From assembly GCA_004557405.1 (NCBI GenBank), contig SFDZ01000009.1, positions 15,014-79,013 of the forward strand: 64,000 bases of DNA. The letters are read 5' to 3'. A program made the translations under genes and the position numbers. The notes under the pieces were generated by a model. The model had not been told where the DNA came from, made no database searches, and saw only the letters and a list, made by a program, of their open reading frames with translations. Position 1 is the stretch's first letter; every line of letters begins with the position of its first letter. Shown here piece after piece: positions 18,772-32,235 of the stretch. Source of the stretch: Bacteroidales bacterium. GTDB taxonomy: Bacteria; Bacteroidota; Bacteroidia; Bacteroidales; Paludibacteraceae.

Positions 18772-18800
18772 AGACACACATCACCCCTCCGATAACAAAA

Positions 18801-18839
18801 ACGAGCGCTATTGTTCAAAACAGTAGCGTTCGTTTTTTT
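18801..18839. terminator. groEL intrinsic terminator, also the only hairpin available to end the convergent defence operon
   Basis: 10-bp stem ACGAGCGCTA (18801-18810) / TAGCGTTCGT (18824-18833) with one G-U pair on the plus strand, then a T-run at 18833-18839. Read on the minus strand it has one C-A mismatch and is followed by TTTTGTT. Confidence 0.75.
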
Positions 18840-18858: not shown

Positions 18859-19434
18859 CTAATCTAAGGATTCGGGTTCGTCTTCGTCTGTACTTTCAGC
18901 GACAGAAGCATCGAAAGCCAAAAAGACTTCGAGAAAAGCGGTCTCGCGGTAGAAAAAGTTGGGGTCATCAGTCAGTTTGTCCTCCATAAAATGGAACCCC
19001 CAGTTGGCGTATTCCTCCATTGTCTGCATCAGCATATCAACGGCTTTCCGCGGTGTCATTTCGCCTTTTTCAAGAGCGATGAAATCAATATCGGTGCGGG
19101 CGACAAGGGCAGTGAAAATGTACTCACGTAGTTTAGGGTAGGCTTTTCGCCCTTTTACAGAATCCAAATTGCCCCAATACTGGATGGGCTGGCCGAAAGT
19201 CTTGCGTTTTTGCGTGTCTTCTATAAGCGGTCGTTTTTGGTTGAAATACAGCCCTATAAAAAATGCCACAATAAATATTTCATAACCACCGCCAAAGACT
19301 TTGCCTCTGTCTTCGCGTAAAGATGTCGCACCACGACCGTAATCGCAAAAGTTCTTGATGATACTGTCCTCGTATCTCTTTTCCCATTGCGGGTTTCGGG
19401 CTGCCCACAAATCATATATCTTTTCTGCTGCCAT
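18859..19434 (-). CDS. Hypothetical 191-aa protein with an acidic C-terminal tail (last gene of the island operon)
   Basis: ATG 19434, 6 nt after the stop of the SMC-like gene. I recognise no motif with certainty. It may correspond to a small dnd-associated protein family (to be tested). The tail is SVAESTDEDEPESLD. Confidence 0.6.
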   Translation of the reverse strand: MAAEKIYDLWAARNPQWEKRYEDSIIKNFCDYGRGATSLREDRGKVFGGGYEIFIVAFFIGLYFNQKRPLIEDTQKRKTFGQPIQYWGNLDSVKGRKAYPKLREYIFTALVARTDIDFIALEKGEMTPRKAVDMLMQTMEEYANWGFHFMEDKLTDDPNFFYRETAFLEVFLAFDASVAESTDEDEPESLD

Positions 19435-19440
19435 AATTCG

Positions 19441-21615
19441 TTATCTTATTTGTGTAACAATCGTTTGAATGGTTGATAAATCCTTATCGTTGAAAGGCTC
19501 GACTTTCTCAATCCGATAAACAGAACAAGAAAGTTTATTGATTGTATCGAAATCCAATGCCTTTTGTCCTGTTGCCTTGTCGATGTTTAGCAAATCTTTC
19601 GTAACGATAACACATTGCTTGTCAATGGTATCTATCACATTGTAGAATGTATCTTCCTTGAAACCACCGAATGAAGATGTTGGCGCATCAAAAATCAATG
19701 GGTAATCCTGCTCACGTTTCAAAGTTGTGATTTGGGAAATGGCAAACAGAACCGACATATACATTGTTGTCTTCAATGCACCGTTTGGATTCTCAATGCG
19801 TGTGCCGTTGTCGCTGTATAGTTCGATACGTGCGGAATTGTTGATGGTTTTTCTGATTCGGATTATACCGTAGAAGTCGTTTTTGTTCAACTTCTGTAAA
19901 TACTTGTTCGATTCGGTTTCAAGCATTTGCAGGAAGTTGTTGATGTTTTGCTCTTTTGCGTTTGCAAATGCTTTGGTTATTCGTTCAAATGCGGTGTGAA
20001 CACGCTGATAAACCTGTGTCATTGAACTTGTTGGTTCAAGTTGCGACAATTTTTCTTGTATTTCAGCCCTCGCACTCTCCTTGAATTTCAATGTGGTTTC
20101 CAATTCAGAGACACGGCTTTCCGCACGGCTTTTAGCGTCAAAGAAGCCTCTCAAATCGGATATGCTCTTGTCAAGCAGTTCCGCACTTAACCCCGATTGC
20201 ATCAGCAAATCGTTTTGTTCTGTTTCTAATTCTTGCAACTGTTTTTCCACTTCTGCCAACTCGGCTTTTCTTTTAGTGACAAATTCCAAACGGTCGGAAA
20301 TGGTAGTCGCAATCTTTGAAATCTCTTGCTCTGTGTCTCCACTCAATTTGATTTGGCGAGAATGCAATTCATTGATGAATGAATTGGGAAACAGCGGCTT
20401 ATCGTCCTCTTCATTTGTGCCTGAATTTTTATTGGCCTCCGCTGCTATATGGGCAAGATATTCATTCAGTTTGTTGCACATAAACTCGTAAGCCTCCGAA
20501 CCTTTGGGGGCTGGGCGACCGCAGACTTTGCAGATTTCATCGTCAATCATTTCTTTCATTGTAGCCTCATCGGGCAAATTCCACGGCAAAGGAACAGCAT
20601 CATTGGCAAGTTTCTGGATTTTTGAGATAGCCTCACGTTCTCCAGCCTCTTTTGCTCTGCGTTCTGTTTCCTGCTTGTCAAGTCTTCGTTTTTCTTTGCT
20701 CAAAGCAGAGACTTTTGTGGAAAACTCTTTTATGATTGCAGGGAAGGAACGCAGAATCCAATATTCGTCCAACAGATTGGTGCTATACTCGCACGATGAC
20801 CATGCAACCAACTTCGCCCGTTTGTCTTTCAGCCCTTTGATGCGCTCTTTTATGGCTTGGTAGCGTTCCGATGTTTCTTGGTTCTTTTCCAATAATTCCA
20901 ACTTTGAGGAGAACTCGTTGATGGAAACTTTCTTTTGATTAAGTTCCGTTTTGAGGTTCTGAATATCGTTTGTAACATCATTCAGTTGCGTATTCAGTTC
21001 TTTTGCCTGATTAGATACCCTCTTGTCGTTTTGCAATTCTCGGTTTGACGCATTGGCTGATTTCTGTTCGAAATTTGATGTCATTTCTACCAACTCATCA
21101 AATTGTCTGATGCCCGAGAAAGTATCAACCAAAGTTTTCAATGCCGTATCATTGTCGAATACATTGAGTTCATTTTCGCCCTTGAACAAACAATACTTAC
21201 GAATGACAGGCTCGAAACATATATTCAAAAGCCTGTCGCCTGCGGTGAAATGGCGTTCGGCTCCTTCAATGAAATAACCAGAAAATTTGTAACCCCTTGT
21301 GCGGTATTCCGAATCAGATATTCTTTCAAAGGTGAAACTTTTCTCAATCTCCTTCTCGCCGTCGTGCTCAAACGTTATGCTGACAGAAACCTCATCGGAC
21401 TCACCAATTTCCAATTCTGATTTGCGTTTTTCGGAAATGTGTGAATCTTTTCGGTTCTCGCCTGTTGTGTCGAACAGCCATTCCAACGCCTCAAACAAGG
21501 TCGTTTTGCCATCACCATTATCTCCGATTACCAAAGTCAGACCTTTTGATAATGAAAGGTGATTGCTTCCATAGTAACTGCGGAAGTTGTTTATTTTTAT
21601 ATCTTTGATAATCAT
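19441..21615 (-). CDS. SMC/Rad50/DndD-like ABC-type ATPase with a central CxxC (zinc-hook-like) motif
   Basis: 724 aa. N-terminus IKINNFRSYYG...LTLVIGDNGDGKTTLFEALEWLF (Walker A, aa 31-39). About 400 aa of coiled-coil-type sequence with CKVC at aa 362-365, the exact midpoint. C-terminus YPLIFDAPTSSFG (Walker B / D-loop). Confidence 0.75.
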   Translation of the reverse strand: MIIKDIKINNFRSYYGSNHLSLSKGLTLVIGDNGDGKTTLFEALEWLFDTTGENRKDSHISEKRKSELEIGESDEVSVSITFEHDGEKEIEKSFTFERISDSEYRTRGYKFSGYFIEGAERHFTAGDRLLNICFEPVIRKYCLFKGENELNVFDNDTALKTLVDTFSGIRQFDELVEMTSNFEQKSANASNRELQNDKRVSNQAKELNTQLNDVTNDIQNLKTELNQKKVSINEFSSKLELLEKNQETSERYQAIKERIKGLKDKRAKLVAWSSCEYSTNLLDEYWILRSFPAIIKEFSTKVSALSKEKRRLDKQETERRAKEAGEREAISKIQKLANDAVPLPWNLPDEATMKEMIDDEICKVCGRPAPKGSEAYEFMCNKLNEYLAHIAAEANKNSGTNEEDDKPLFPNSFINELHSRQIKLSGDTEQEISKIATTISDRLEFVTKRKAELAEVEKQLQELETEQNDLLMQSGLSAELLDKSISDLRGFFDAKSRAESRVSELETTLKFKESARAEIQEKLSQLEPTSSMTQVYQRVHTAFERITKAFANAKEQNINNFLQMLETESNKYLQKLNKNDFYGIIRIRKTINNSARIELYSDNGTRIENPNGALKTTMYMSVLFAISQITTLKREQDYPLIFDAPTSSFGGFKEDTFYNVIDTIDKQCVIVTKDLLNIDKATGQKALDFDTINKLSCSVYRIEKVEPFNDKDLSTIQTIVTQIR

Positions 21616-21845
21616 ATATTTGATTTTAGAAAATTACTAACCTCGTTGTAGATTTCCCTTTCTGTTGCTTTTTGCTCATTTCGATTGATGATTTGAGCAA
21701 TGGCTTTAATTACAGGAATATCAGAATCCAAAGCGTCTGAAATTGAACTGTAATCATCGGGATTATAGCCATAGAAATTTATAAGCTGCTCATCAGCAAT
21801 CACAGCTTGCAAAATCTTATCTCCGTTGGTTTGATACGTATTCAT
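21612..21845 (-). CDS. Hypothetical 77-aa protein, translationally coupled (ATGA) to the SMC-like ATPase
   Basis: ATG 21845 lies 6 nt after the helicase stop, and its stop overlaps the ATG of the next gene. No recognisable motif. Very AT-rich. Confidence 0.55.
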   Translation of the reverse strand: MNTYQTNGDKILQAVIADEQLINFYGYNPDDYSSISDALDSDIPVIKAIAQIINRNEQKATEREIYNEVSNFLKSNI

Positions 21846-21851
21846 ATTGCA

Positions 21852-24128
21852 CTAATTAAATATGGATAGATTATAATGATTCAATACTTCTTGCAGTTCG
21901 TTGTCGGTATCATTCAGATTCTCTGACAACAAAGCAAAATCACGAACACGCCTCAACTCGCTTTGCACAAAGCTTTTCTCCAAAGCATAACATTCTTCAT
22001 CAAATACATTGTCAGGTATTACGATGAGGTCGTGAATGATGGCAAAACGCTTATCCTTGTGCGTGCGAAGAACACGACCACGGCGTTGAATGAATTGGCG
22101 TGGGTTTCCCGTGCTTGCGCAGAAAATAGCCAGTTCGCTTCGTGGCACATCAACACCTTCATCAAGGCACTTCATTGAGGTAAGCACATCAATGCTTCCA
22201 TCGGCAAACCCTTTGAGCATTGCATCACGGTCTGTCGATTCGGAAGTGAACTGACGGACAATGATATGGGAATCCATATCACGAACAATGCGAGTGAAGT
22301 CGTCAATCAGATGTTCGGTTTCGGGGTCGGACGCGATAGTGTCGGAATGGTCGAAAATATCAGCCTCGAAATTATCGGGCTTGTTGCCTTCGGGAACATA
22401 GACCAACGTGTATTTCAGACTGCCTTTTTCTTCCATACGCTGCCGAACAATTTCCTGAAAAGCGGATAACTTGTTGGCGGCTTTGTGAATGATGCGTTTG
22501 CGTTTCAGCAAAAGCATTTTCAATCGTTCCTGGCTTTCATCGTCACGGAAGCCCATTATTTTGACTATCTTCTTTGAAAGTTCAACATATTCAGCCATCT
22601 CGTTTTCAGTCAGGCGAACAATGTGTGGATAATAGTAATATCGGCACAAAGCCCCATTCTGAATGGCTTCAGCCATTGAATATTCGAAAGTGTAACTGTC
22701 AGAACAGCCAAAGAAATCCATCAGTTTGCGGTTGCCCGTATCGTCAAACTGTCGTTCGGGTGTTGCAGAGAGCCCAATGCGACGCAAATATTTTATGTCC
22801 GAAAGGCGTTGAGCCATCAAGCCACCGCCCATATTGTGAGCCTCGTCAGCGACAAGCAATAGTTTGTTTTTGGGGAATTGGTTCAATTCCATAAAAACAT
22901 TGGAACGGACAAACGAAGCGTAAGTTGATATGATTATGTAAGACAAATCGTTGTCGGCGTTTGTCATTTCAAGTAAGCGAAGATTGGCAACCGCCGATTT
23001 CCAATTGTTATACTTTGAGCAAACTTTTATAATGGTGCTGAAATTAAACTTTTTACATTCAATTTCCCATTGTTCGACAAGTGTAATGGTTGGAACAAGG
23101 ATAATGGCTTTGTAGTAGCCCAACTTGTTGTATATCTCAAGCAGACAGTTCAGTGAGGTAATGGTTTTGCCAGTACCTGTTGCCATTGCGAACAAGCCTT
23201 TCTGTTGGTTGCTCTTCCAATTCTCGAATGCTTGTTTCTGATATTCACGCGGACCAGATTCGTATGGGAAACGAGGCTTGCCAAAGTCAATTGGGGTGAC
23301 TTCTTCGCCTTTGGTCTTGAGTTTTTCAATTTCAACCTCAACTTTGTTCTTGGCTTTCTCCAGTGCCTTAATCACAGATTTGGGCAATGACTTATCAGCA
23401 ATATCCTGTTGGATAAATTTGTACTCATCTTCAAGCAAATCTTTCAATTCCTTGTTTTTGAACGATTCGGCAATATGTGTTTTCACTCTGTCGGTCGGAA
23501 CAAAAACGACATTTTCATCTTTGCCCGTAAAAACAAGTTCAAATTCTCCGCTGATTTTGTTTATTGTAGCAGACGCTGGATTGCCGTCCCAATCGCAGAA
23601 CGCCGTGAGGCTTTCAATGTTGTCAATCAATGCCGACCGTGAAAAGTTGCAAGAGCCATCGAAGCCGACCTTGTTCACGCCATCGCTGAAAATGCCTGTC
23701 TTTGTGTGAGAAATGCCAATGCCGTCTTTGGGTGCAACGATTCTAATATCAAGCCGATTGTTGCGAATGAGCCACGCAAGGCAATCGAAGAAGTGTGCAT
23801 CACGCTCTGAAAGAGTGTTTCTCAGTTTCTCAATGTCTGTAATATCAAAGAAAGGAATTGGCGTGTCAAGTTCTCCGTTGGCAATGGCGTTTTTATCCTG
23901 CTCGGTAAGGATGTCGTTTACAATCAGATTCATACGACCGCCATTATAAAGGAATGAAGCAAAACCATCAGCCAATACATTGATAGCTGAAGAAGAGAAG
24001 AAGCCCAACATCAAATTGAACTGTGTGGCATTACACAGACAATCAGCGAAGAAACCGATAGGCTCCCACTCTGTCCGCGATTTGAAATGGCGGTGTGCTG
24101 GAAATGAGACTTCTTTGAGCATGATCAC
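21852..24128 (-). CDS. PLD-family (HKD) nuclease domain fused to an SF2 DEAH helicase (ResIII-type)
   Basis: 758 aa from GTG 24128 (GTGA overlap with the DGQHR gene) or 756 aa from ATG 24122. HKD motif ISHTKTGIFSDGVNKVGFDGSCNFS. Helicase motif I FAMATGTGKTITS, II LLLVADEAHNMG, III GLSATP, VI FIQRRGRVLR. Confidence 0.8.
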   Translation of the reverse strand: MIMLKEVSFPAHRHFKSRTEWEPIGFFADCLCNATQFNLMLGFFSSSAINVLADGFASFLYNGGRMNLIVNDILTEQDKNAIANGELDTPIPFFDITDIEKLRNTLSERDAHFFDCLAWLIRNNRLDIRIVAPKDGIGISHTKTGIFSDGVNKVGFDGSCNFSRSALIDNIESLTAFCDWDGNPASATINKISGEFELVFTGKDENVVFVPTDRVKTHIAESFKNKELKDLLEDEYKFIQQDIADKSLPKSVIKALEKAKNKVEVEIEKLKTKGEEVTPIDFGKPRFPYESGPREYQKQAFENWKSNQQKGLFAMATGTGKTITSLNCLLEIYNKLGYYKAIILVPTITLVEQWEIECKKFNFSTIIKVCSKYNNWKSAVANLRLLEMTNADNDLSYIIISTYASFVRSNVFMELNQFPKNKLLLVADEAHNMGGGLMAQRLSDIKYLRRIGLSATPERQFDDTGNRKLMDFFGCSDSYTFEYSMAEAIQNGALCRYYYYPHIVRLTENEMAEYVELSKKIVKIMGFRDDESQERLKMLLLKRKRIIHKAANKLSAFQEIVRQRMEEKGSLKYTLVYVPEGNKPDNFEADIFDHSDTIASDPETEHLIDDFTRIVRDMDSHIIVRQFTSESTDRDAMLKGFADGSIDVLTSMKCLDEGVDVPRSELAIFCASTGNPRQFIQRRGRVLRTHKDKRFAIIHDLIVIPDNVFDEECYALEKSFVQSELRRVRDFALLSENLNDTDNELQEVLNHYNLSIFN

Positions 24129-25378
24129 AACGTTATTTCTGATATTCGTCGTTCTGCTTCCTGTAAATCAATATTGAATATCGTCGCATATTTGCTCTTC
24201 ATAGAACTTTTTTCTTTTTCAGTCAAAAGATTTATGTCTATCATTTTAATCAATAGGTAATAAACCAATGACTGATTTCTCATAATCATTTTTTTTGTTC
24301 TTGGATTCCATAAAATCATATCCCAAATATCTGAATGGACACACCGATTCAAATTGGTATAATTTTTTATTATCTCATCAATTGAATTAGTAGTTGTTAT
24401 GGATATTCTTGAGACAGCCTCAACAAATGGCAACAAACCTATTGGGCGGAAAAACAAGTTTCCTCCATTCTCACTAGAACGTAACTCTTCGGCAGGATTG
24501 TTAGAATTGTCATTAATGTAATTATTAATCTCATTAAATGTGGATTTCATACAATTCCAGAACTGTATCAAATAATCATTAAATTCATTGATAATTTCTT
24601 CTTCAGGTCTGTATTTTAGTTTATCATTGATTTGAGAATTATTGTAGGTTTTCCCATCTTTTTGGCTTATAAATGTTTTATATAATACCAAGTGACATTG
24701 ATACAATGTCATAAGCGATGTGAATGCTTCTTTGTCTGATTGTGGCATTGCTTTGCTGTTGCTAATTTTAATTCTATTACCCATAAATAAAGGATAGGAC
24801 TCCAACAATTCACGAGTTACTATAGCAACAATGTCGTCTTCATCAAGAGCAATAATATCCCCTAAACGAACAGGTTTGACATACCTGTTAAGCGTAGAGA
24901 AGATTCTTCTTGATTTTTCCCTGCCTACTGGTGTATTTTGATGACCAATAAGCATCACACTAATGGTTTCTCTGCCCAACTCTTCGTTTTCAATTAATGC
25001 AGCTCTGATTCCTTCAACTCTATGCTGACCATCAACAGGGAATATTTTTTCTTGTCCTGTAAATTCTAGCAATCCGACGTTATGATAAGGATTGTTCTCT
25101 ATTTCAAATCGAACTTCTGTCCACATTGGTTCCCCGTCATAAACTGCAAGAACAAGACTATCAAAAAAACGGTCTTCACGTTTTAGAATGTATTCTTTTA
25201 TCTTGATAAAATTATCTGTAAGAGAACGTTGGATTTGTTCTTTTAAAGAATTTGCAGTGTGTAATTCATCATCTACTTTTCTTACCATTGTACTAATTTG
25301 TCTAAAAGTCAAAGTAGTAGAATAGTAAACGGTATTGCCTATCTTTCCTCTTATGGCAGGTATTTTTATTGCTTCCAT
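24125..25378 (-). CDS. DGQHR-domain protein (DndB-like, ParB/Srx fold)
   Basis: 417 aa. IFPVDGQHRVEGIRAAL (DGQHR at aa 116-120), followed by RRIFSTLNRYVKPV, as in DndB/DGQHR families. About 30% GC. Confidence 0.8.
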   Translation of the reverse strand: MEAIKIPAIRGKIGNTVYYSTTLTFRQISTMVRKVDDELHTANSLKEQIQRSLTDNFIKIKEYILKREDRFFDSLVLAVYDGEPMWTEVRFEIENNPYHNVGLLEFTGQEKIFPVDGQHRVEGIRAALIENEELGRETISVMLIGHQNTPVGREKSRRIFSTLNRYVKPVRLGDIIALDEDDIVAIVTRELLESYPLFMGNRIKISNSKAMPQSDKEAFTSLMTLYQCHLVLYKTFISQKDGKTYNNSQINDKLKYRPEEEIINEFNDYLIQFWNCMKSTFNEINNYINDNSNNPAEELRSSENGGNLFFRPIGLLPFVEAVSRISITTTNSIDEIIKNYTNLNRCVHSDIWDMILWNPRTKKMIMRNQSLVYYLLIKMIDINLLTEKEKSSMKSKYATIFNIDLQEAERRISEITL

Positions 25379-25380
25379 AA

Positions 25381-25905
25381 CTAAAATGCATTAATTGGTT
25401 CTTGGACTTCTATTTTATCTGGTATTTCAGAATTAAAAGGCGGTCTAATCGCTCTAATAAGAGCAACCTCATTTTTATCTATTATGTCATTATTCGTTTC
25501 TGGATAATAACGATAAAACAAATAATCTTTCCAATACTTTTTCATTCTTACAATTTCTGTTCTGGAATTATCGGAATCATACTCTTTAGCACGTTTACGA
25601 ATATATTGTTTCCCCTCGGAATAGTGGCATCTTCCAATATATACAATGTATTTTTCAATAAACGGAAGATTAATACCTTTAAGATAAAACATATATACAC
25701 CACCTGTATTCGTCGGTAGATTATTAATATCTTCAGAAACAATGCTACCTTCATAATACTTTATTTCTTTTGACCAATGAGCTTCCTCAACTATGGGATT
25801 AGCATTGTCAATCTTATTGTCAACCCAATGTTTAGGATTGTGATAATAAGTTATATCATATAACTTATCCTCATCATTTTCATTTATGAATGCGTTAATT
25901 CTCAT
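25381..25905 (-). CDS. GIY-YIG-like nuclease domain protein
   Basis: ORF 25381..26010 trimmed to ATG 25905 (1 nt after the PAPS-reductase-family stop). GGVYMFYLKG ... KYIVYIGRC ... IRKRAKEY ... NEVALIRAIRPPFN reproduces the GIY / YIG / R / E..li....P.fN pattern. Confidence 0.6.
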   Translation of the reverse strand: MRINAFINENDEDKLYDITYYHNPKHWVDNKIDNANPIVEEAHWSKEIKYYEGSIVSEDINNLPTNTGGVYMFYLKGINLPFIEKYIVYIGRCHYSEGKQYIRKRAKEYDSDNSRTEIVRMKKYWKDYLFYRYYPETNNDIIDKNEVALIRAIRPPFNSEIPDKIEVQEPINAF

Positions 25906-25906
25906 A

Positions 25907-27010
25907 TCATATAAAACAATTAGCACACATAATTTCATCGCCAAGAACATCAACAAGCGTTGTTCCTTTGCTTTGCTTGCGGTTTTCTTCCTGACGCTTA
26001 ATAATGTCAAGCTTTATTTGGCGTACACGTTCGGGATTGCATAATTCAGCCAAACTCTCGTTTTGATTCCATGTATAGCCATCTTTTTCAAACTCCATTG
26101 CTTGTCGATATAAATCAGGGTGTTGCTCGTAGAGCCAAATCCATTCTATCTTCTGTTGGAAAAAACAGAAATAGCAACCTGAACGGCTACGGCAATATGT
26201 TCCTACTTTCCCATCTACTTCAAATGGAATTTCCTCATAATATGCTGGAACGCCTACGCCACTTTCTCGAAGCAATCGGAAAATGTCTTCTTTCACAAGA
26301 ACATCAGTGTTGTCAAGCAACGGAAAATCATCCAATTTGCCTACAGGGTAGTCTGTGGTTTTCAAAAAAGCGAACACAACTTTATTGAATAGTTTTATGT
26401 CAAAATCCAACAGGGCATTCAGTTTTTTTGAATAATAAAACTGCTTTGTTATTTGTTTAGTGACAGTTTCCATAAGCTCGTCTTTCATAAAGTTGTTGGG
26501 GCATAGCAAATCGTACAATGAAACAAACTGCTCCAAGTTGTCGTTATGCAACACTTTGTTTATCACATCAAGGCTCCAAATGTTTCTTCTGAAAGGAAAC
26601 ACCGCCTGAATGTTCGGCTTTGACGATATGTAACCGTCGCGGTCCTCGTCGCCACGAATGCCAACGTATGAGATTGCCAAATCGTCGCCAACATACTTTT
26701 CAAACTCTGCTAGTTTCATCTTCTGTGTGCACCAGCGAGCTTGAGGCGAAGGCAAGAATCCTCCTGCGGCTTTCAAAAAATGGTGGAACGGTGTGGGTTC
26801 GGAACTGCCCTCGGCCGCCCGCAGTCTTACAATTTTTCCCAAATAGGTTTCGAGCCTTCGGATAAGCACCTCGGTTTCCTCCAACTCACAACCTGTGTCC
26901 GAATTGTAGTATTCAATCTTCAGATTCGGATATTTCTGTTTCAAGTATATGGAAAGAGCGGCGCTATCTTTCCCGCCTGATATTCCTAATATGTGTCTTA
27001 CGTTGGTCAT
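25907..27010 (-). CDS. PP-loop ATP pyrophosphatase of the PAPS-reductase family (SspD/DndC-like)
   Basis: 367 aa. ILGISGGKDSAALSIYL (SGGKDS at aa 11-16). C-terminal cysteine cluster CRSRSGCYFCFF. ATGA overlap with the upstream YhcG gene. Confidence 0.8.
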   Translation of the reverse strand: MTNVRHILGISGGKDSAALSIYLKQKYPNLKIEYYNSDTGCELEETEVLIRRLETYLGKIVRLRAAEGSSEPTPFHHFLKAAGGFLPSPQARWCTQKMKLAEFEKYVGDDLAISYVGIRGDEDRDGYISSKPNIQAVFPFRRNIWSLDVINKVLHNDNLEQFVSLYDLLCPNNFMKDELMETVTKQITKQFYYSKKLNALLDFDIKLFNKVVFAFLKTTDYPVGKLDDFPLLDNTDVLVKEDIFRLLRESGVGVPAYYEEIPFEVDGKVGTYCRSRSGCYFCFFQQKIEWIWLYEQHPDLYRQAMEFEKDGYTWNQNESLAELCNPERVRQIKLDIIKRQEENRKQSKGTTLVDVLGDEIMCANCFI

Positions 27011-28137
27011 CGCTTTTCTTCGCTATCAAGTTCTAATTCTATATCCTCCATTTGTGGCAAAGCCGATTTTACATCCGCAAAAAGTTTTTCCGTTTCGTAT
27101 TGGGCTATACCAAGAGGTTGCGTCACACCACGCAAGGCGAATTTTGCTTTTGTGTCGCTTTTGGTACGACAAAGCAACAAACCTATTGTCGGATTATCCT
27201 CCGATGTCTTAACATATTCGTCCACAGCCGATATGTAAAAGTTCAGTTTGCTGACGAATTCGGGAATAAACTCCACTGCCTTAAGTTCAACCACCACATA
27301 GCAATGCAGTTTCAGATGATACATCAAAATGTCAAGGTAGTAATCATCGCCATCTACGGCCAAATGATACTGCCGCCCTACAAAAGAAAAACCTCGCCCC
27401 ATTTCAAGCAGGAAATCTGTAACTCTTTTTGTCAATTCTTTTTCAATGCTACGTTCATTCTGTAATGCGGCAGAACCAATAAAGTTGAAATTGTAAGGGT
27501 CTTTGAATGTGTGTTGTGCCAAATCGGATTGAATTGGCGGCAATGTATTGATGAAATTGTTGATGGATTTTCCTTTGGCGTATATGTAACCATTGGCGAT
27601 TTGCGCCAACATAACATCACGACTCCAGCCTTCTTGCTCTGTAGCCAGGATATAAAATGCGCGTTCTGCTATATCCTCAACTTTCGGGATTAGTGATATA
27701 TGGTGATACCAAGTGATTTGAGTGAGAGACACTTGAATATGATCTTTGCCTTTTTCTGCCAATTTGGCAAGTGGCACTTGCCAAAATTCAGAATTCTCCA
27801 ATTTGGCAAGCGGCACTTGCAGAATTGGGAAATCAGGATAGGCTTCGGCAAAACGCTTCATATTTCTCAAATTTCTATCTGAGTACCCCTTGTCATCGGG
27901 AAATGATGCAGCCAAATCTTTCGATAGCTGGGCGATAACTTGTGTTCCCCAACCTTGTTCTTTCTGCTTTTTTATGATGTCGGTGCCAATCTTCCAATAC
28001 AGAGCCAATAGTTCGGCATTAACACAGAGCACGGCTTTGTATTTTGCTTGTGCTATCAATGTTACAATATCCTGCCGCCAATTTTCGTAGCCTTCGGGCA
28101 TAAAGCCAGCTTTAATTATGTTTTCTATATCTTTCAT
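27007..28137 (-). CDS. YhcG/DUF1016-family PD-(D/E)xK nuclease
   Basis: 376 aa. N-terminal DUF1016-type helical domain (LYWKIGTDII..Q.EQGWG..VI.QLS.DL...FP...GYS.RNL..M..F). Nuclease core GDDYYLDILMYHLKLHCYVVVELKAVEF. ATGA overlaps on both sides. Confidence 0.8.
   Translation of the reverse strand: MKDIENIIKAGFMPEGYENWRQDIVTLIAQAKYKAVLCVNAELLALYWKIGTDIIKKQKEQGWGTQVIAQLSKDLAASFPDDKGYSDRNLRNMKRFAEAYPDFPILQVPLAKLENSEFWQVPLAKLAEKGKDHIQVSLTQITWYHHISLIPKVEDIAERAFYILATEQEGWSRDVMLAQIANGYIYAKGKSINNFINTLPPIQSDLAQHTFKDPYNFNFIGSAALQNERSIEKELTKRVTDFLLEMGRGFSFVGRQYHLAVDGDDYYLDILMYHLKLHCYVVVELKAVEFIPEFVSKLNFYISAVDEYVKTSEDNPTIGLLLCRTKSDTKAKFALRGVTQPLGIAQYETEKLFADVKSALPQMEDIELELDSEEKR
27759..27820. repeat. 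39-nt in-frame tandem duplication inside the YhcG gene, containing a 23-bp palindrome
   Basis: CCAATTTGGCAAGTGGCACTTGC (27759-27781) and CCAATTTGGCAAGCGGCACTTGC (27798-27820) match at 22/23 with a 39-nt period, encoding QVPLAKL twice. TTTGGCAAGTG-G-CACTTGCCAAA (27763-27785) is a perfect palindrome. Confidence 0.9.
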
Positions 28138-31100
28138 CGCTTCATTTTCTTATTCAATATTTCAAGCAACGCGCAGATTTCCGCATTGCTGTTGCCCGAA
28201 AGTATCGCGTTTATTTTTGCCTCTAACTCCGAAACTCGCTTTTTGTCCTTTTCAGGCAGAATGTATGTCTGCGTTCTGATGCTTGTTCCGCTATTCGTCA
28301 CCATATCAAACGAATAGGCGACATCACTGTCAGAAATTGCTTTCTTTGAAATGTCGGCGTACTTTTCGCACTCGCGAAAAAGGAACACCAAGTCATCGGC
28401 TAACTTATCCTCTTCTTCGTCGCGCAGCGATTCGAGTTTATGTTCCAGAATCGGATAACAAATGGACTGATACCACAATGTGCGGTTGTCATACTCTGCC
28501 ATCACGTGCTGATAGAATTCCTTTTGCTTGGCTGTCAGCAAATGCGTTTTGACATTTGCCAACCGTTGCCTGATTTCCTCAACATACTCGTTGTAGTCGG
28601 CCGATTCAAGCCCAAGTCCGTCAACAAGACGGATTTCAAGGCGGTCGATGAGTTGCGAGTAGCACGAACGCAACTCGCGTATGGCCTTCTGTATCACATT
28701 GCCGTATTCTTCGATGTCGGTGTCAGATTTCGTTTTTTTCGTAAATCCTAAAGCGTCGGGTAAATCTTCGAAAAACGCCTTTTCGGGATCTTTGGCCGTT
28801 GCCAGAATATCGCGGAAGCGCATTGTGGATTTATGCGAGAACTTGCGGGTGTGCTTTGTGTAATCGTTTAACCTTTTGTAGAATAAAAGAAACGGCTTTA
28901 TGGTCTCGATAAAACTCTGCGTTGTAATATTGAACTCATCGCCTAAATTAACAAAGCGACGGTATTGGTTGAAGAAGTCGAGCCGTACGCCGTCCACCTC
29001 AAACGCCTTGACGGCATAGTCGGCGGGGTGCTTCTGCAGCAAATCGAAAAAGAGCATATCCACGTTGGGAATATATGCGCCTCGGTTTGTATCGTACAAG
29101 GCAAAATCCTGCCGCTTGATGAACAGGAACGTCGGTATCCAGAAATCGAGAAAACCTTGTTTCAGTTTGAAAGGCTGTGCTGACAGAATCTTTATCAGTT
29201 CCGATATTTTCCGCTGCTTGCCAACTGTGCTTTTCAGGAAACGCATACTCGCATTCCACAATGTGGCTATGCCATCGTTTGTGGGCGCATCAGCAAAACC
29301 GCTGCCTGTATGTAACCCTGTGTTTTTCAGCAATGAATAATAGATTGTTTTTTCGGGCGGAAATTTATCTTTTTCAAAACCTAAATCTACTTCATCATAA
29401 TGCTCGACAAGGGCGTTCAGATAGTTTTTGCGTGCCGAAGAAATTGCACCACTCAACTTGTGACGGTTGAACAACTCATTGAGCATTACAGGTGTCTCTG
29501 AATAAACTTCATCGCAAACTTTCGAGAGCAGTTTGTTGAAATCTTTATGTGAAGAAACCTTCTGTTTTTCGCCTTTGAAAATCCATACGACTTGATTTTT
29601 GTATGAGAAAAGGTTGTCGCTCACCGCTTTGTTGAGTAGCGTTTCCTCATATTCCTTCAGTCTCTGTATCTCGTTGTATGCTACACGGTCTGCTTCTTTG
29701 TCAATCAGCACTTTTGTCAGAATGTAATCGTATTTCTGAATGCTATACAGATGGTCAATGATTTTTTCGGTATTACTGAAATAAGCATAAATGACAGCGT
29801 GTTCTGTGTTTGCACTTGTTTCCTTGATGGTGTCGAGCGTATTTGCGTTGGCAGAAAAAATCAGCTCTATGTATCCGTCAGTATCACCCGTCGGCGTCAT
29901 GTCAACGGCATTTTCGCGTATTTCATACTCGAAATAACGGGGCGTGCCTTTATGGTAATAGTGAGCCTTGACTGGTGAAATGCGTTTGCTGACGAAGTGC
30001 CGCAAGTCATCGATAAAGGCTATCGGGCGTGCCACTTGAGTACCGGCTTTCTGAATCTCTAATTCCAAATCAATGTCGGTTCCTTCAAAAAGCAAAAGAC
30101 GCTGTTTGTATTCTGCATATCGTATGATTTTGAATCGTTGCAGTTTGCCGATAATATCTACAGCATCCTGCACGTTCATTGTCAAACGTGCATATTCAGC
30201 CATCTGTTCGGGCTTCATTGCAAAACTTGCTATTCCGAACAGATTCAGCAATCCGATAGCCTTCACAATTTTTATGGCATCTGTCATCTGCTCGGCATTG
30301 TTCCAATCCAACCCTTCAACTCTTTCGATAGAAACTTGTATTGAGTTCCAACCCATTGAGTCCATATTGGCATCTTTCAAGTATGAATAGAAGTTGTAAA
30401 CAATGTAGTCATATACGTGTGCCAAGTTGTAGGTCAGATTGGTGGTTGCTGTAAATTCGGACAATGAATTTGATCCGCAAGCAGCAAGGAACGAGAAAAG
30501 CGAGCGTTCGTTTTGTCCGTAACGCTGAATGGCGGCGGTAACAGCAAACGCCGAGAACGAGTCGAGCGGATAAAGTTGTTGTGCCGTTTCTGCGGAAAAT
30601 GCGTTGGAAACAAATTTTGTTTCAATAGCCAACTGATAGATTTGGCTTGCGGTTTCACTTCCTTTTTGCGGCAGGTTGGCATGCAACTGTTGCGAAGCCA
30701 AAAACAAAAGTTGTTCAATGGGTTCCACAAATGTTATTTCCTTGAACCTGCCTTTCACTTTTGTCCATTCGTTCTTCTGCGTTTCGGTCAGATTTCTGGC
30801 GTATGCTCCGAAGTTTTGGTGCAGCGTTGTCAGTAGCAATATATCGCGCGAAGGAACATTGATAAACTCCGCAAACTTCTGAAGAAAATACAACTCCTGT
30901 TCGGGATTGTTTTTGGCGGCGTGTTCCAGCACTTTGCCAAATTCGTCTATCACGATGAGCAAAAACTTATTCTGCTCTTTCAGTTGGTTGTAATACTTTT
31001 TCAACTCATCGAGAATGCTTTGCGACTGTCCGTCCATATTTAGATTTCGTCCCAACAAAGTGGAAAGTTCCATATAGTCGCCGACAATGTTCAGAATCTC

Positions 31101-31388
31101 AAAATCCGCTGTCTGCGAAAGATTTTTCGGATTCAACAGCCTTTTCGTCTTGTTGCCGCGGTTCAAATCCGATTCCAGAGCCAGAAGGAACGAAGATTTC
31201 CCTGTTCCGTATGTACCGATAATCGTAAACGAGTGTATTCCAGAACGAAAGTCGTCAATAATGTTTTGTGCTGCCTTTCTTCCGTTTGGAGTAACAATAT
31301 ATTGGAATTCAGCAGGGAATCCATTTTCAATATTTGCCGATAAGCTAAATCCTTTATTCATAGTAATTGTCCAATACTTGTTTTGCAT
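28134..31388 (-). CDS. Large P-loop NTPase (SspC-like / BrxC-PglY-sized ATPase)
   Basis: 1084 aa (1075 aa if the start is the second ATG at 31361). Walker A GTYGTGKS (aa 58-65), Walker B LLIVIDEFGK, then about 850 aa of mostly helical sequence. It overlaps the DUF4007 gene by 35 nt, or 8 nt from the second ATG. Confidence 0.7.
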   Translation of the reverse strand: MQNKYWTITMNKGFSLSANIENGFPAEFQYIVTPNGRKAAQNIIDDFRSGIHSFTIIGTYGTGKSSFLLALESDLNRGNKTKRLLNPKNLSQTADFEILNIVGDYMELSTLLGRNLNMDGQSQSILDELKKYYNQLKEQNKFLLIVIDEFGKVLEHAAKNNPEQELYFLQKFAEFINVPSRDILLLTTLHQNFGAYARNLTETQKNEWTKVKGRFKEITFVEPIEQLLFLASQQLHANLPQKGSETASQIYQLAIETKFVSNAFSAETAQQLYPLDSFSAFAVTAAIQRYGQNERSLFSFLAACGSNSLSEFTATTNLTYNLAHVYDYIVYNFYSYLKDANMDSMGWNSIQVSIERVEGLDWNNAEQMTDAIKIVKAIGLLNLFGIASFAMKPEQMAEYARLTMNVQDAVDIIGKLQRFKIIRYAEYKQRLLLFEGTDIDLELEIQKAGTQVARPIAFIDDLRHFVSKRISPVKAHYYHKGTPRYFEYEIRENAVDMTPTGDTDGYIELIFSANANTLDTIKETSANTEHAVIYAYFSNTEKIIDHLYSIQKYDYILTKVLIDKEADRVAYNEIQRLKEYEETLLNKAVSDNLFSYKNQVVWIFKGEKQKVSSHKDFNKLLSKVCDEVYSETPVMLNELFNRHKLSGAISSARKNYLNALVEHYDEVDLGFEKDKFPPEKTIYYSLLKNTGLHTGSGFADAPTNDGIATLWNASMRFLKSTVGKQRKISELIKILSAQPFKLKQGFLDFWIPTFLFIKRQDFALYDTNRGAYIPNVDMLFFDLLQKHPADYAVKAFEVDGVRLDFFNQYRRFVNLGDEFNITTQSFIETIKPFLLFYKRLNDYTKHTRKFSHKSTMRFRDILATAKDPEKAFFEDLPDALGFTKKTKSDTDIEEYGNVIQKAIRELRSCYSQLIDRLEIRLVDGLGLESADYNEYVEEIRQRLANVKTHLLTAKQKEFYQHVMAEYDNRTLWYQSICYPILEHKLESLRDEEEDKLADDLVFLFRECEKYADISKKAISDSDVAYSFDMVTNSGTSIRTQTYILPEKDKKRVSELEAKINAILSGNSNAEICALLEILNKKMKR

Positions 31389-32235
31389 CCAACTGCTGTG
31401 TAAACTGCAACTGCCTGATTCCTGCTACATCGCTGTAGGCCAAATAATTAGAATATTTTTCTGATAATATTTTCAGCATATCAATCACTTCCAGATCTGT
31501 CATACAAAATATTAATCCTAATTCGTGCAGAGTGTCGTATGGTATGCTGTTGTCGTTCTCCTCTTTTACCGTCAGCAAAGCAAACAGAAAAATGGCTGGA
31601 ATCACTTGTCGTTTGCCCTCTATGTTAAAGAAGTATCGGCTACGTTTGTCCTCTGAATTTTCCGTTTTATCACTTTGCCTGAGCAAATCCAAATCCATCA
31701 GTAGGGTTGAAAACTCCTCATTTGATTGCGGATTACGTGGTAAACAATAGTTCAACAACAAAACTCCGACATCCTTTTTGACTGTGTTTTCATTAAACAA
31801 ATTCGCTTTGCCCGCTTCAATCATTTTGCGCTTCACAAAATTGACCACTTGTTCTCGTTCGAACAGCCTGCGTTCTTTTTGGAAGTCAATAAAAAACATT
31901 TTGTATAAAGACGCTCCGCCAGTGTAAACTAAAAGGAAATGCAACAACCAAAGAGTCCCTAAATCTTCCGTAAATGGGTCTTTGCCAATATCAGTGCTAA
32001 AAATATACTCCGCAAGCCATTCTGTTTTTGCACCTTTATCCAATCCAAAAACTTTATACCAATAGCGAATAGATGATACCATGTTTTTGCCTACACCTAA
32101 ATCTACTACGGCATTGGGTGAGTTGAAATCTTTATGTGCTGTTACGAAATCATAACCTTTTTTCGTCCACAATGTTTTACAAGGAAATGATTCATGACCT
32201 GAGAATGTGTATGCTTTGTTATTGTGTACATCCAT
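31354..32235 (-). CDS. DUF4007-family protein (SspB-like, phosphorothioation-associated)
   Basis: 293 aa. The N-terminal block YTFSGHESFPCKTLWTKKGYDFV matches my recollection of the DUF4007 signature (F.rHEtF..R..Wl.Kg). As I recall, the family is described as co-occurring with PAPS-reductase genes. First gene of the operon. Confidence 0.6.
   Translation of the reverse strand: MDVHNNKAYTFSGHESFPCKTLWTKKGYDFVTAHKDFNSPNAVVDLGVGKNMVSSIRYWYKVFGLDKGAKTEWLAEYIFSTDIGKDPFTEDLGTLWLLHFLLVYTGGASLYKMFFIDFQKERRLFEREQVVNFVKRKMIEAGKANLFNENTVKKDVGVLLLNYCLPRNPQSNEEFSTLLMDLDLLRQSDKTENSEDKRSRYFFNIEGKRQVIPAIFLFALLTVKEENDNSIPYDTLHELGLIFCMTDLEVIDMLKILSEKYSNYLAYSDVAGIRQLQFTQQLDAKQVLDNYYE

Follow-up and report, generated by a model that had tools for sequence, protein, structure and literature searches.

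The gene cluster and its neighbourhood

The window analysed here is a 64,000-nucleotide (nt) stretch of the genome of a Bacteroidales bacterium (Paludibacteraceae; assembly GCA_004557405.1, contig SFDZ01000009.1, positions 15,014 to 79,013), and this text concerns three adjacent genes at 18859 to 21845 of it. They encode a protein of 77 residues (aa), a 724-aa Rad50-like ATPase with a pair of cysteines midway along its coiled coil, and a 191-aa protein with an acidic tail. A preliminary description, made from the sequence alone, presented these genes as a module of their own. The three open reading frames (ORFs), the ATGA overlap between the first two, the 6-nt gap before the third, the Walker A motif, the midpoint CKVC and the acidic tail are all confirmed from the sequence. 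The limit to three genes was drawn too narrowly: the gene upstream, which encodes a PLD-helicase protein of the PbeA type, was left out and belongs to the unit. As PbeA lies directly upstream and is followed by a positional equivalent of PbeB and by divergent forms of PbeC and PbeD, the unit here is a four-gene module resembling PbeABCD, A gene included, in one operon with SspBCD, a writer of DNA phosphorothioation (PT). Quite probably the locus encodes a divergent PbeABCD-type module, co-transcribed with this writer as one defence operon, because the PbeA scores, the profile matches of the ATPase to PbeC and of the D protein to PbeD, the operon coupling and the linkage to PT writers all point in that direction.

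From sspB onwards, the encoded proteins are SspB, SspC, a YhcG-type PDDEXK protein, SspD, the product of a 209-aa ORF, a DndB-like DGQHR protein, PbeA and the 77-, 724- and 191-aa proteins (Table 1), and down to the 191-aa gene all junctions overlap or are at most 6 nt wide. The PbeA and 77-aa genes are 6 nt apart, the 77- and 724-aa genes overlap by 4 nt (ATGA), and 6 nt separate the 724- and 191-aa genes. Of 81 related loci, 77 retain the ATGA overlap, and in nearly all the C and D genes are separated by 1-8 nt. The operon sits between dnaK and groEL, with sspB beginning about 160 nt after dnaK, and the island has a guanine-plus-cytosine (GC) content of 0.32-0.45, against 0.49-0.55 in its flanks. 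Pfam matches to DUF4007 and YhcG_C fall within the block from sspB to sspD (25907..32235). No gene for a cysteine desulfurase (SspA) adjoins the operon (18859-32235 and its flanks), and the system presumably uses a housekeeping desulfurase encoded elsewhere in the genome.

Table 1. Features of the operon, with positions in the window
Feature	Position	Strand	Remark
SspB	31354..32235	-	PADLOC 281 bits; PT writer component
SspC	28134..31388	-	PADLOC 1246 bits; PT writer component
YhcG-type/DUF1016 PDDEXK gene between sspC and sspD	27007..28137	-	PADLOC PDC-S02 435 bits; Pfam YhcG_C
SspD	25907..27010	-	PADLOC 287 bits; PT writer component
209-aa ORF, GIY-YIG-like motif	25381..26010	-	between sspD and pbeA
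417-aa DndB-like DGQHR protein	24125..25378	-	DndB, DGQHR family matches
PbeA, N-terminal PLD/HKD-type nuclease and superfamily 2 (SF2; ResIII/DEAD) helicase	21852..24128	-	PADLOC, NCBIfam
77-aa small acidic protein gene	21612..21845	-	PbeB equivalent by position
724-aa Rad50-like coiled-coil ABC ATPase gene, CxxC hook	19441..21615	-	divergent PbeC homologue, by sequence
Walker A GDNGDGKT, aa 31-38 of the ATPase	21502..21525	-	N33, G36, K37 invariant among 89 relatives
CKVC hook, aa 362-365 of the ATPase, coiled-coil apex	20521..20532	-	both Cys 89/89
Walker B-like LIFDA, aa 640-644 of the ATPase	19684..19698	-	Asp-Ala invariant
191-aa divergent PbeD-family gene (dnd_assoc_4 / PF27807), acidic C-terminus	18859..19434	-	profile comparison
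DEPESLD tail motif of the 191-aa protein	18862..18882	-	conserved across the family
Hairpin, 19-bp stem, T-runs on either side	18797..18837	.	bidirectional terminator, groEL versus operon end

The module proteins compared with canonical PbeABCD

PbeABCD was defined by Xiong et al. in 2019 as a PLD/helicase protein (PbeA) and an SMC-like ATPase (PbeC) with two further proteins, PbeB of about 66 aa and PbeD of about 152 aa (PMC6459918), and the CxC ABC ATPase-DndE-HKD/SF2 system of Rakesh, Aravind and Krishnan (2024) is the same system under another name (PMC10853773). In the latter account, PbeC is a 'CxC' Zn-hook ABC ATPase and sister to DndD, PbeB a small, rapidly evolving regulator, and PbeD an obligate partner of PbeC that is argued to be a DndE cognate (PMC10853773). 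The two small proteins, called uncharacterised in the preliminary description, are not wholly so, as together with the ATPase they form a set that corresponds to PbeB-PbeC-PbeD of this published system (PMC6459918, PMC10853773). As reference I used five canonical Pbe modules from annotated plasmids, namely those of Haloprofundus, Pseudanabaena, Pontibrevibacter, Lactiplantibacillus and a sphingomonad.

Judged by its sequence, the gene directly upstream of the 77-aa ORF is an unambiguous PbeA. The product of 21852-24128 matches the PADLOC PbeA model over its full length with 1113 bits, the NCBIfam model dnd_restrict_1 ('DNA phosphorothioation system restriction enzyme') with 411 bits, and also the NCBIfam model for the N-terminal domain of anti-phage PLD proteins. 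It carries a PLD-type HxK...GSxN motif at aa 141, which is conserved in canonical PbeA, together with SF2 helicase motifs, and a BLASTP comparison with the Haloprofundus PbeA gives an E-value of 2e-87.

An exhaustive HMMER search with the 724-aa ATPase over 1.8 billion cluster representatives returned 168 clusters at E < 1e-30, and 89 full-length relatives, with 22-58% identity to the window protein, were aligned. Half of 724 being 362, the CKVC at aa 362-365 stands at the exact midpoint of the chain. Both cysteines, C362 and C365, are invariant in all 89 relatives, where they are located at 0.49-0.52 of each protein's length within the consensus CKVCG[RN].A..GS, and in this alignment aa 335-412 hold no other conserved Cys or His. 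Two conserved ligands per chain would imply an inter-chain metal site, as a tetrahedral site then needs two chains, like the hook of Rad50. The AlphaFold2 monomer model built from the same alignment (predicted local distance difference test, pLDDT, 88.9; predicted template modelling score, pTM, 0.69) shows an ABC head split over aa 1-166 and aa 584-724, two helical arms, one ascending (aa 169-333, 165 residues) and one descending (aa 413-576, 164 residues), and at the apex a small helix-hairpin-helix domain (aa 350-396) with the CxxC in the hairpin that joins the two helices. The hydrophobic periodicity of 3.5 residues in the two arms reaches z = 6.7 and 6.4 relative to shuffled sequences, and is about 0 in the head domains. 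Foldseek against the PDB places Rad50 (7zr1) on top with an E-value of 1e-19, followed by MukB, SMC, JetC and LmuB, and the hook peptide, searched against PDB sequences, gives matches to rubredoxin knuckles at chance level only and no Rad50 hook. The early reading of the protein as a Rad50/SMC-like ABC ATPase with a cysteine hook in mid-coil is upheld by the structural ranking and by the invariant CxxC, and the proposed Rad50-hook geometry by the model and the 3.5-residue periodicity, which place the motif at the apex between equal arms.

With respect to family, the best PADLOC match of the ATPase is PbeC (1e-21), which is also the best family in nine of ten distant relatives tested, the tenth (P0290) having LmuB first. 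C[VI]C is present in all five canonical PbeC, at 0.49-0.53 of the chain length; behind the Walker B strand, D-[TS]-P occurs in four of them, and this pattern was not found in the Lactiplantibacillus protein. An hhalign comparison of the ATPase family with these five proteins reaches a probability of 100% with an E-value of 5e-60 over 632 columns, end to end; FKGE falls on FDGE and DAP on D[TS]P, and the cysteines of the two hooks align with a gap of one residue. As this profile comparison is clear even though pairwise similarity is marginal, the 724-aa ATPase is best placed as a deep and distinct subfamily of the PbeC/CxC clade that has a CxxC hook.

Other identities were considered for the ATPase, and the profile search suggested at the outset against DndD, Rad50/SbcC and LmuB has PbeC as its best match. 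A canonical DndD was rejected: NCBIfam DndD (TIGR03185) finds no match in the window protein at E <= 0.01, whereas canonical PbeC score 154-179 bits on it, a hook is present, and dndC and dndE neighbours are absent. What stands of the proposed DndD analogue is its relatedness to DndD; it is not a plain DndD, as TIGR03185 is not matched and no dndBCDE cluster is present. Some homologues are annotated as DndD by JGI. Membership of Rad50/SbcC was rejected because Mre11/SbcD is missing and the NCBIfam Rad50 model gives 54 bits against a cut-off of 700, although a hook-like motif is found. Lamassu was rejected as well, with LmuB models that match nearly the full length at 6e-19 but no LmuA or LmuC in the operon, and so was Wadjet, since no Jet models occur among the best 25 of 53 PADLOC matches for the ATPase or among the matches of its neighbours. 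JetC emerges solely as a structural analogue in Foldseek. The idea of a stand-alone system of the Lamassu or Wadjet type consequently fails on the lack of LmuA and JetABD and on the linkage to a PT writer.

The 191-aa protein, for which 863 homologues were found, ends in SVAESTDEDEPESLD. Its tail is acidic as first described, and it is more than a matter of composition, because the terminal motif [DE]n-E-P-[ED]-[SP]-L-D is conserved across the family. The AlphaFold2 model, of moderate confidence, has a pLDDT of 76, falling below 50 at aa 174-191, so that the tail is predicted to be disordered. Searches of the 191-aa and 77-aa proteins against Pfam, NCBIfam and PADLOC gave no direct family match even at E <= 10, TIGR04062 included for the 191-aa protein, and PDB sequence searches with this protein and with its family profile produced chance matches only. 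The silence of PADLOC on the 191-aa protein is uninformative, as a canonical PbeD is left unmatched too. Profile comparison with a 32-sequence alignment of canonical PbeD (dnd_assoc_4, TIGR04062 / PF27807) gave hhalign probabilities of 54-62% with narrow query alignments, and 93.4% with an E-value of 2.4e-7 over 117 columns after the query had been widened by six distant members. The 191-aa protein and canonical PbeD have in common an EEYAN.G motif, a hydrophobic helix rich in F and A, and the acidic C-terminus, and two relatives of the 191-aa protein, P0208 and the D protein of locus L094, have precomputed matches to PF27807. On these profile grounds I file the 191-aa protein as a divergent PbeD.

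The preliminary description stated that there is no DndE. This holds for ordinary sequence searches: the Pfam DndE model matches neither the 191-aa protein nor any of the 32 canonical PbeD, and hhalign of the 191-aa/PbeD family against DndE stays below 1%, with a DndE profile of only two sequences. It has to be qualified in that one paper argues the PbeD family to be a DndE cognate; that relationship is not reproduced here, and the published claim rests on a more sensitive analysis (PMC10853773).

Several homologues of the 191-aa protein (P0140, P0168, P0211, P0214, P0237) bear the NCBI name 'glycoside hydrolase family 15'. As sequence, predicted structure and context give no support for a glycoside hydrolase, this label looks like a propagated misannotation. 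In a distant relative (L093, 3904-4677), a PbeD-like protein of 257 aa has a C-terminal extension with EAD11 ('effector-associated domain 11'), which hints that the C-terminus of the D protein is its adaptor end.

The 77-aa gene fits PbeB in position, size and translational coupling, and its sequence is unrelated; the protein is PbeB by position and coupling only. It has 'YGYNP.DYS.I' in common with the small proteins of the distant trios linked to BREX type 4 that are described below.

Related loci and their variable parts

I compared 80 species-level genome loci (46-93% identity, almost all from Bacteroidales) and 4 metagenome contigs, and the gene order A-B-C-D is constant throughout. For the linkage to Ssp the count was restricted to loci that extend 1.5 kb or more upstream of pbeA, 72 in all. 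In 70 of these sspD lies upstream on the same strand as pbeA, directly abutting it in 37, often with a spacing of 1 nt; in locus L069, by contrast, the Pbe module has no detectable Ssp genes in the 7.7 kb upstream. Linkage of the module with the CxxC ATPase to PT writers is near-obligate. It had been called unusual for a DndD-like protein with a hook to occur in an Ssp setting; this is correct relative to the literature but not to Bacteroidales genomes, where the combination is common. Loci of this type abound in Bacteroidales from gut, rumen and mouth, and cultured carriers include Tannerella forsythia ATCC 43037, Hoylesella loescheii DSM 19665, Alloprevotella tannerae ATCC 51259 and Parabacteroides distasonis. 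A bare cassette of seven genes, SspB-C-D-PbeA-B-C-D, occupies the same dnaK locus in close relatives. The pairing of Ssp with Pbe extends beyond the CxxC subfamily, since on a sphingomonad (alphaproteobacterial) plasmid SspABCD precedes a PbeABCD of the canonical CxC form.

Among relatives of the ATPase at 25-34% identity, two contexts are found. Those at L091, L093, L094-96, L098-99 and L103-104 are linked to Ssp in other arrangements. At L097 and L100-102 the trio of small protein, CxxC ATPase and PbeD-like protein directly follows BrxL in BREX type 4, with no PbeA and no Ssp; these operons consist of BrxP, an ORF of 151-154 aa, BrxC, PglZ and BrxL, and the trio begins 8-30 nt further on (at L101, BrxP scores 641, BrxC 1323, PglZ 773 and BrxL 704 bits). 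Recent work has identified BREX type 4 as a PT writer (PMC12914056), and the main text of the recent BREX type 4 papers that were searched makes no mention of the trio after BrxL. As distant relatives carry the trio there without PbeA, the trio is a portable core. The treatment of the three genes as a unit is in this respect correct, even though in the window they belong to a larger module. The same trio behind the BrxL of a PT-writing BREX type 4 suggests a sensing core shared across systems that are treated as separate.

The two halves of the operon differ in their conservation. In a comparison of window positions 18859-32235 with L001-L004, which are metagenomic relatives and likewise sit at this dnaK locus, identity to L001 is 82-93% in the Pbe half and 41-69% in the Ssp half (SspB 41%, SspC 44%, SspD 69%). 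Because identity differs this sharply between them, the Ssp and Pbe halves are separable modules, and the pattern suggests that the writer half, and possibly the target specificity with it, has been swapped against a constant Pbe half.

The junction between sspD and pbeA is a variable slot among the related loci. In the window it holds the 209-aa ORF and the DGQHR gene, a pair that occupies the same slot in 12 of 70 related loci (for example L013, L021, L030 and L049), lies downstream of the D gene in three others (L064, L073, L074), and is the most AT-rich stretch of the island (GC 0.32-0.34). The pair behaves as a mobile accessory cassette. The 209-aa ORF has the GIY-YIG-like motif 'GVYMFY...YIVYIGRC', and its true start is probably an internal Met. 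Elsewhere the slot holds SspE (L025, 5125-7485; PADLOC 972 bits), a three-gene set beginning with a double-HATPase protein (L009, 3488-7483), or a three-gene set including a BrxC/D-like P-loop protein (L032, 3892-7469). As SspE or other sets occupy the slot beside the Pbe module, a single Ssp writer is combined with two putative restriction arms in some genomes. The YhcG/DUF1016 PDDEXK gene of the window overlaps sspC and sspD by 4 nt each, and similar genes (26-31% identity, weak) are present at the same position in L017, L020, L026, L048 and others.

Further genes were seen next to some of the related modules. The canonical PbeABCD of Pontibrevibacter (L087) is also flanked by a DGQHR protein and a small ORF, the small ORFs being unrelated. 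In some distant relatives (L094, and probably L091) an Aminotran_5 gene directly precedes pbeA, and in L001 (1560-2342), L002 and L004 a 260-aa ORF without Pfam match, absent from the window, overlaps the start of sspB.

Function, alternatives and comparison with known systems

From what was observed, namely the identities of the genes, the structure of their operon, the conserved hook, the fold and the link with PT writers, the following mode of action can be proposed. SspBCD, with a housekeeping cysteine desulfurase, would mark host DNA with PT. Two chains of the 724-aa ATPase could join at their apices in the manner of the Rad50 hook, each contributing two Cys to one shared Zn, and engagement of the ABC heads by ATP would then close a clamp that embraces DNA. 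The 191-aa PbeD-like protein might be the partner close to the heads, its acidic C-terminal peptide perhaps serving in docking or autoinhibition, and the 77-aa protein, through its translational coupling to the ATPase, a stoichiometric regulator. This B-C-D core would survey DNA or its PT status and hand over to an effector; here that would be PbeA, which may translocate on, nick, cleave or stall unmarked invading DNA, and in the BREX type 4 loci it would be BrxL/PglZ. In a haloarchaeon (Haloterrigena), the only system for which this is known, all four genes of PbeABCD and PT in the host are needed for defence, and replication of viral DNA is halted (PMC6459918). By analogy with this archaeal homologue, the operon in the window may likewise depend on PT, need its four Pbe genes and block replication.

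Several observations weigh against an assignment to PbeABCD, or against too simple a view of it. A BLASTP comparison of the ATPase with canonical PbeC reaches an E-value of only 1e-5, restricted to the P-loop region. The hook is CxxC where canonical PbeC has CxC, which is a variant of the feature and not its absence. A Walker B motif near the C-terminus, as noted early on, is present as PLIFDAP at aa 639-645, but it reads D-A-P instead of the D-[TS]-P that follows this strand in canonical PbeC and DndD, and with Asp643-Ala644 invariant, the Walker B Asp is not followed by a catalytic Glu. Throughout the subfamily the signature motif is degenerate, [SA]-L-x-T-[TS] at aa 613-617 in the absence of a canonical LSGGQ, and Lys673 stands where the H-loop His is expected; the glutamate of FKGE, Glu147, is invariant and occupies the position of the Q-loop. 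Because of the D-A-P, the degenerate signature and the lysine, the ATPase cycle of this subfamily may differ or be slow. The family of the 77-aa protein has no detectable similarity to the five canonical PbeB (1.9% in hhalign), and Foldseek of the 191-aa model against the PDB, the tandem-RHH protein DndE (7x4e) included, gives no match at E < 1. Finally, Pbe is not necessarily the sole or main restriction arm, since in some relatives the stretch from sspD to pbeA also encodes SspE or other effector sets.

One alternative explanation is that the ATPase and the 191-aa protein serve modification, as a scanning pair similar to DndD and DndE that helps SspBCD to place PT. The tight co-transcription of the module with SspBCD would fit this, as would the position of the clade as sister to DndD, the argued kinship of the D protein with DndE (PMC10853773) and the JGI annotations as DndD. 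However, SspBCD alone modifies DNA in Escherichia coli (PMC8053081), BrxP and BrxC suffice for PT synthesis in BREX type 4 (PMC12914056), and archaeal pbe deletions abolish defence while PT is still made (PMC6459918). Within Ssp contexts the trio is always accompanied by a nuclease-helicase, the two halves of the operon evolve separately by the identities given above, and no similarity to DndE is detectable, so that a role in modification seems distinctly improbable. Somewhat better placed, though still unlikely, is an independent SMC-like system of the Lamassu, Wadjet or Rad50-sensor kind that merely lies beside Ssp and senses DNA ends or structures regardless of PT. Its case is made by the nearly full-length LmuB match and the structural likeness to LmuB and JetC, by the module at L069, and by the report that more than half of PbeAC pairs do not adjoin dndCD (PMC6459918). 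Genes for LmuA, LmuC and JetA/B/D were not found in the operon, PbeC ranks above LmuB in the window protein and most of the distant relatives tested, 70 of 72 loci are linked to Ssp, often at 1-nt spacing, and linkage to PT writers persists at 25-34% identity and in rearranged gene orders. An SMC system independent of PT is unlikely overall given this linkage, and could hold for rare loci such as L069. A housekeeping DNA repair ATPase of the Rad50/SbcC type, lastly, has Rad50 as the best structural match and the CxxC hook in its favour, but is hardly credible and effectively refuted by context: a Mre11/SbcD partner is absent, the arms are about 165 residues long, the score on the NCBIfam Rad50 model is far under its cut-off, and the gene is part of a variably present island of low GC content.

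A PbeABCD-type module joined to its PT writer is the reading preferred here. It can tentatively be extended, with more doubt than confidence, to a self-contained 'reader' core: the trio may be a portable unit for PT writers of the SspD/BrxP lineage that plugs into Ssp or BREX type 4 and works with interchangeable effectors (PbeA in the one, BrxL/PglZ in the other). About 85% of sspBCD loci are without a known restriction partner (PMC8092258). If the reader core is real, the trio could supply much of this fraction, which lacks SspE or SspFGH, with its missing partner for restriction or sensing, and BREX type 4 in gut Bacteroidales would have an extra component that has gone unrecognised. For PbeABCD itself, a reported non-degradative arrest of replication stands against a predicted nuclease, and cultured Bacteroidales could offer a tractable setting for the question of how a zinc-hook clamp similar to Rad50 reads a modified DNA backbone. 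Annotation resources miss the module, as the B and D proteins receive no call from Pfam, NCBIfam or PADLOC. Neither the CxxC-hook subfamily nor its pairing with SspBCD nor its attachment to BREX type 4 was found in the searchable literature, supplementary data not covered.

Among known systems, Rad50/SbcC has in common with the window ATPase a CxxC at the apex of an antiparallel coiled coil with two ligands per chain, and differs in its much longer arms, its Mre11/SbcD partner, its head motifs and its context of repair instead of defence. Lamassu and Wadjet likewise combine an SMC/Rad50-like ATPase (LmuB, matched by PADLOC and Foldseek; JetC, matched by Foldseek only) with small partners in a defence locus, but the window has no LmuA effector and no JetA/B/D, PbeC models fit better, and the genes are linked to a PT writer. 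With DndD-DndE the module has in common a coiled-coil ABC ATPase of similar size, a gene for a small partner downstream, the PT system and the lack of a Glu after the Walker B Asp; in contrast, DndD has no Cys hook, DndC and DndE are absent from the window, and the D protein shows no detectable similarity to DndE. The writer SspB, C and D is that of SspABCD-SspE and SspFGH, and some relatives have SspE as well, whereas PADLOC finds neither SspE nor another Ssp restriction component in the window, where a Pbe-type module stands in the position of the restriction partner. In the 2024 reappraisal, Ssp is without a DndE cognate and SspC replaces the ABC ATPase (PMC10853773).

The closest likeness is to PbeABCD, with the same order of four genes, tight coupling, attachment to a PT writer and similar sizes (B about 60-80 aa, hook ATPase about 650-720 aa, acidic-tailed D about 150-190 aa), and with an ATPase and a D protein that are homologous at profile level and share FxGE, the D-x-P Walker B and EEYAN.G. 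The differences lie in the hook (CKVCGR here, C[VI]CG in the canonical form), in an ATPase that is some 40-60 aa longer, has a degenerate signature motif, fails the NCBIfam DndD model and scores weakly on the PADLOC PbeC model, in a D protein that fails TIGR04062, in a B protein of unrelated sequence, and in the writer, which is SspBCD here and was DndCDEA when the system was first defined, DndC, D and E being absent from the window. The kind of system is already known, and the operon described here carries a divergent CxxC form of it on Ssp instead of the usual Dnd.

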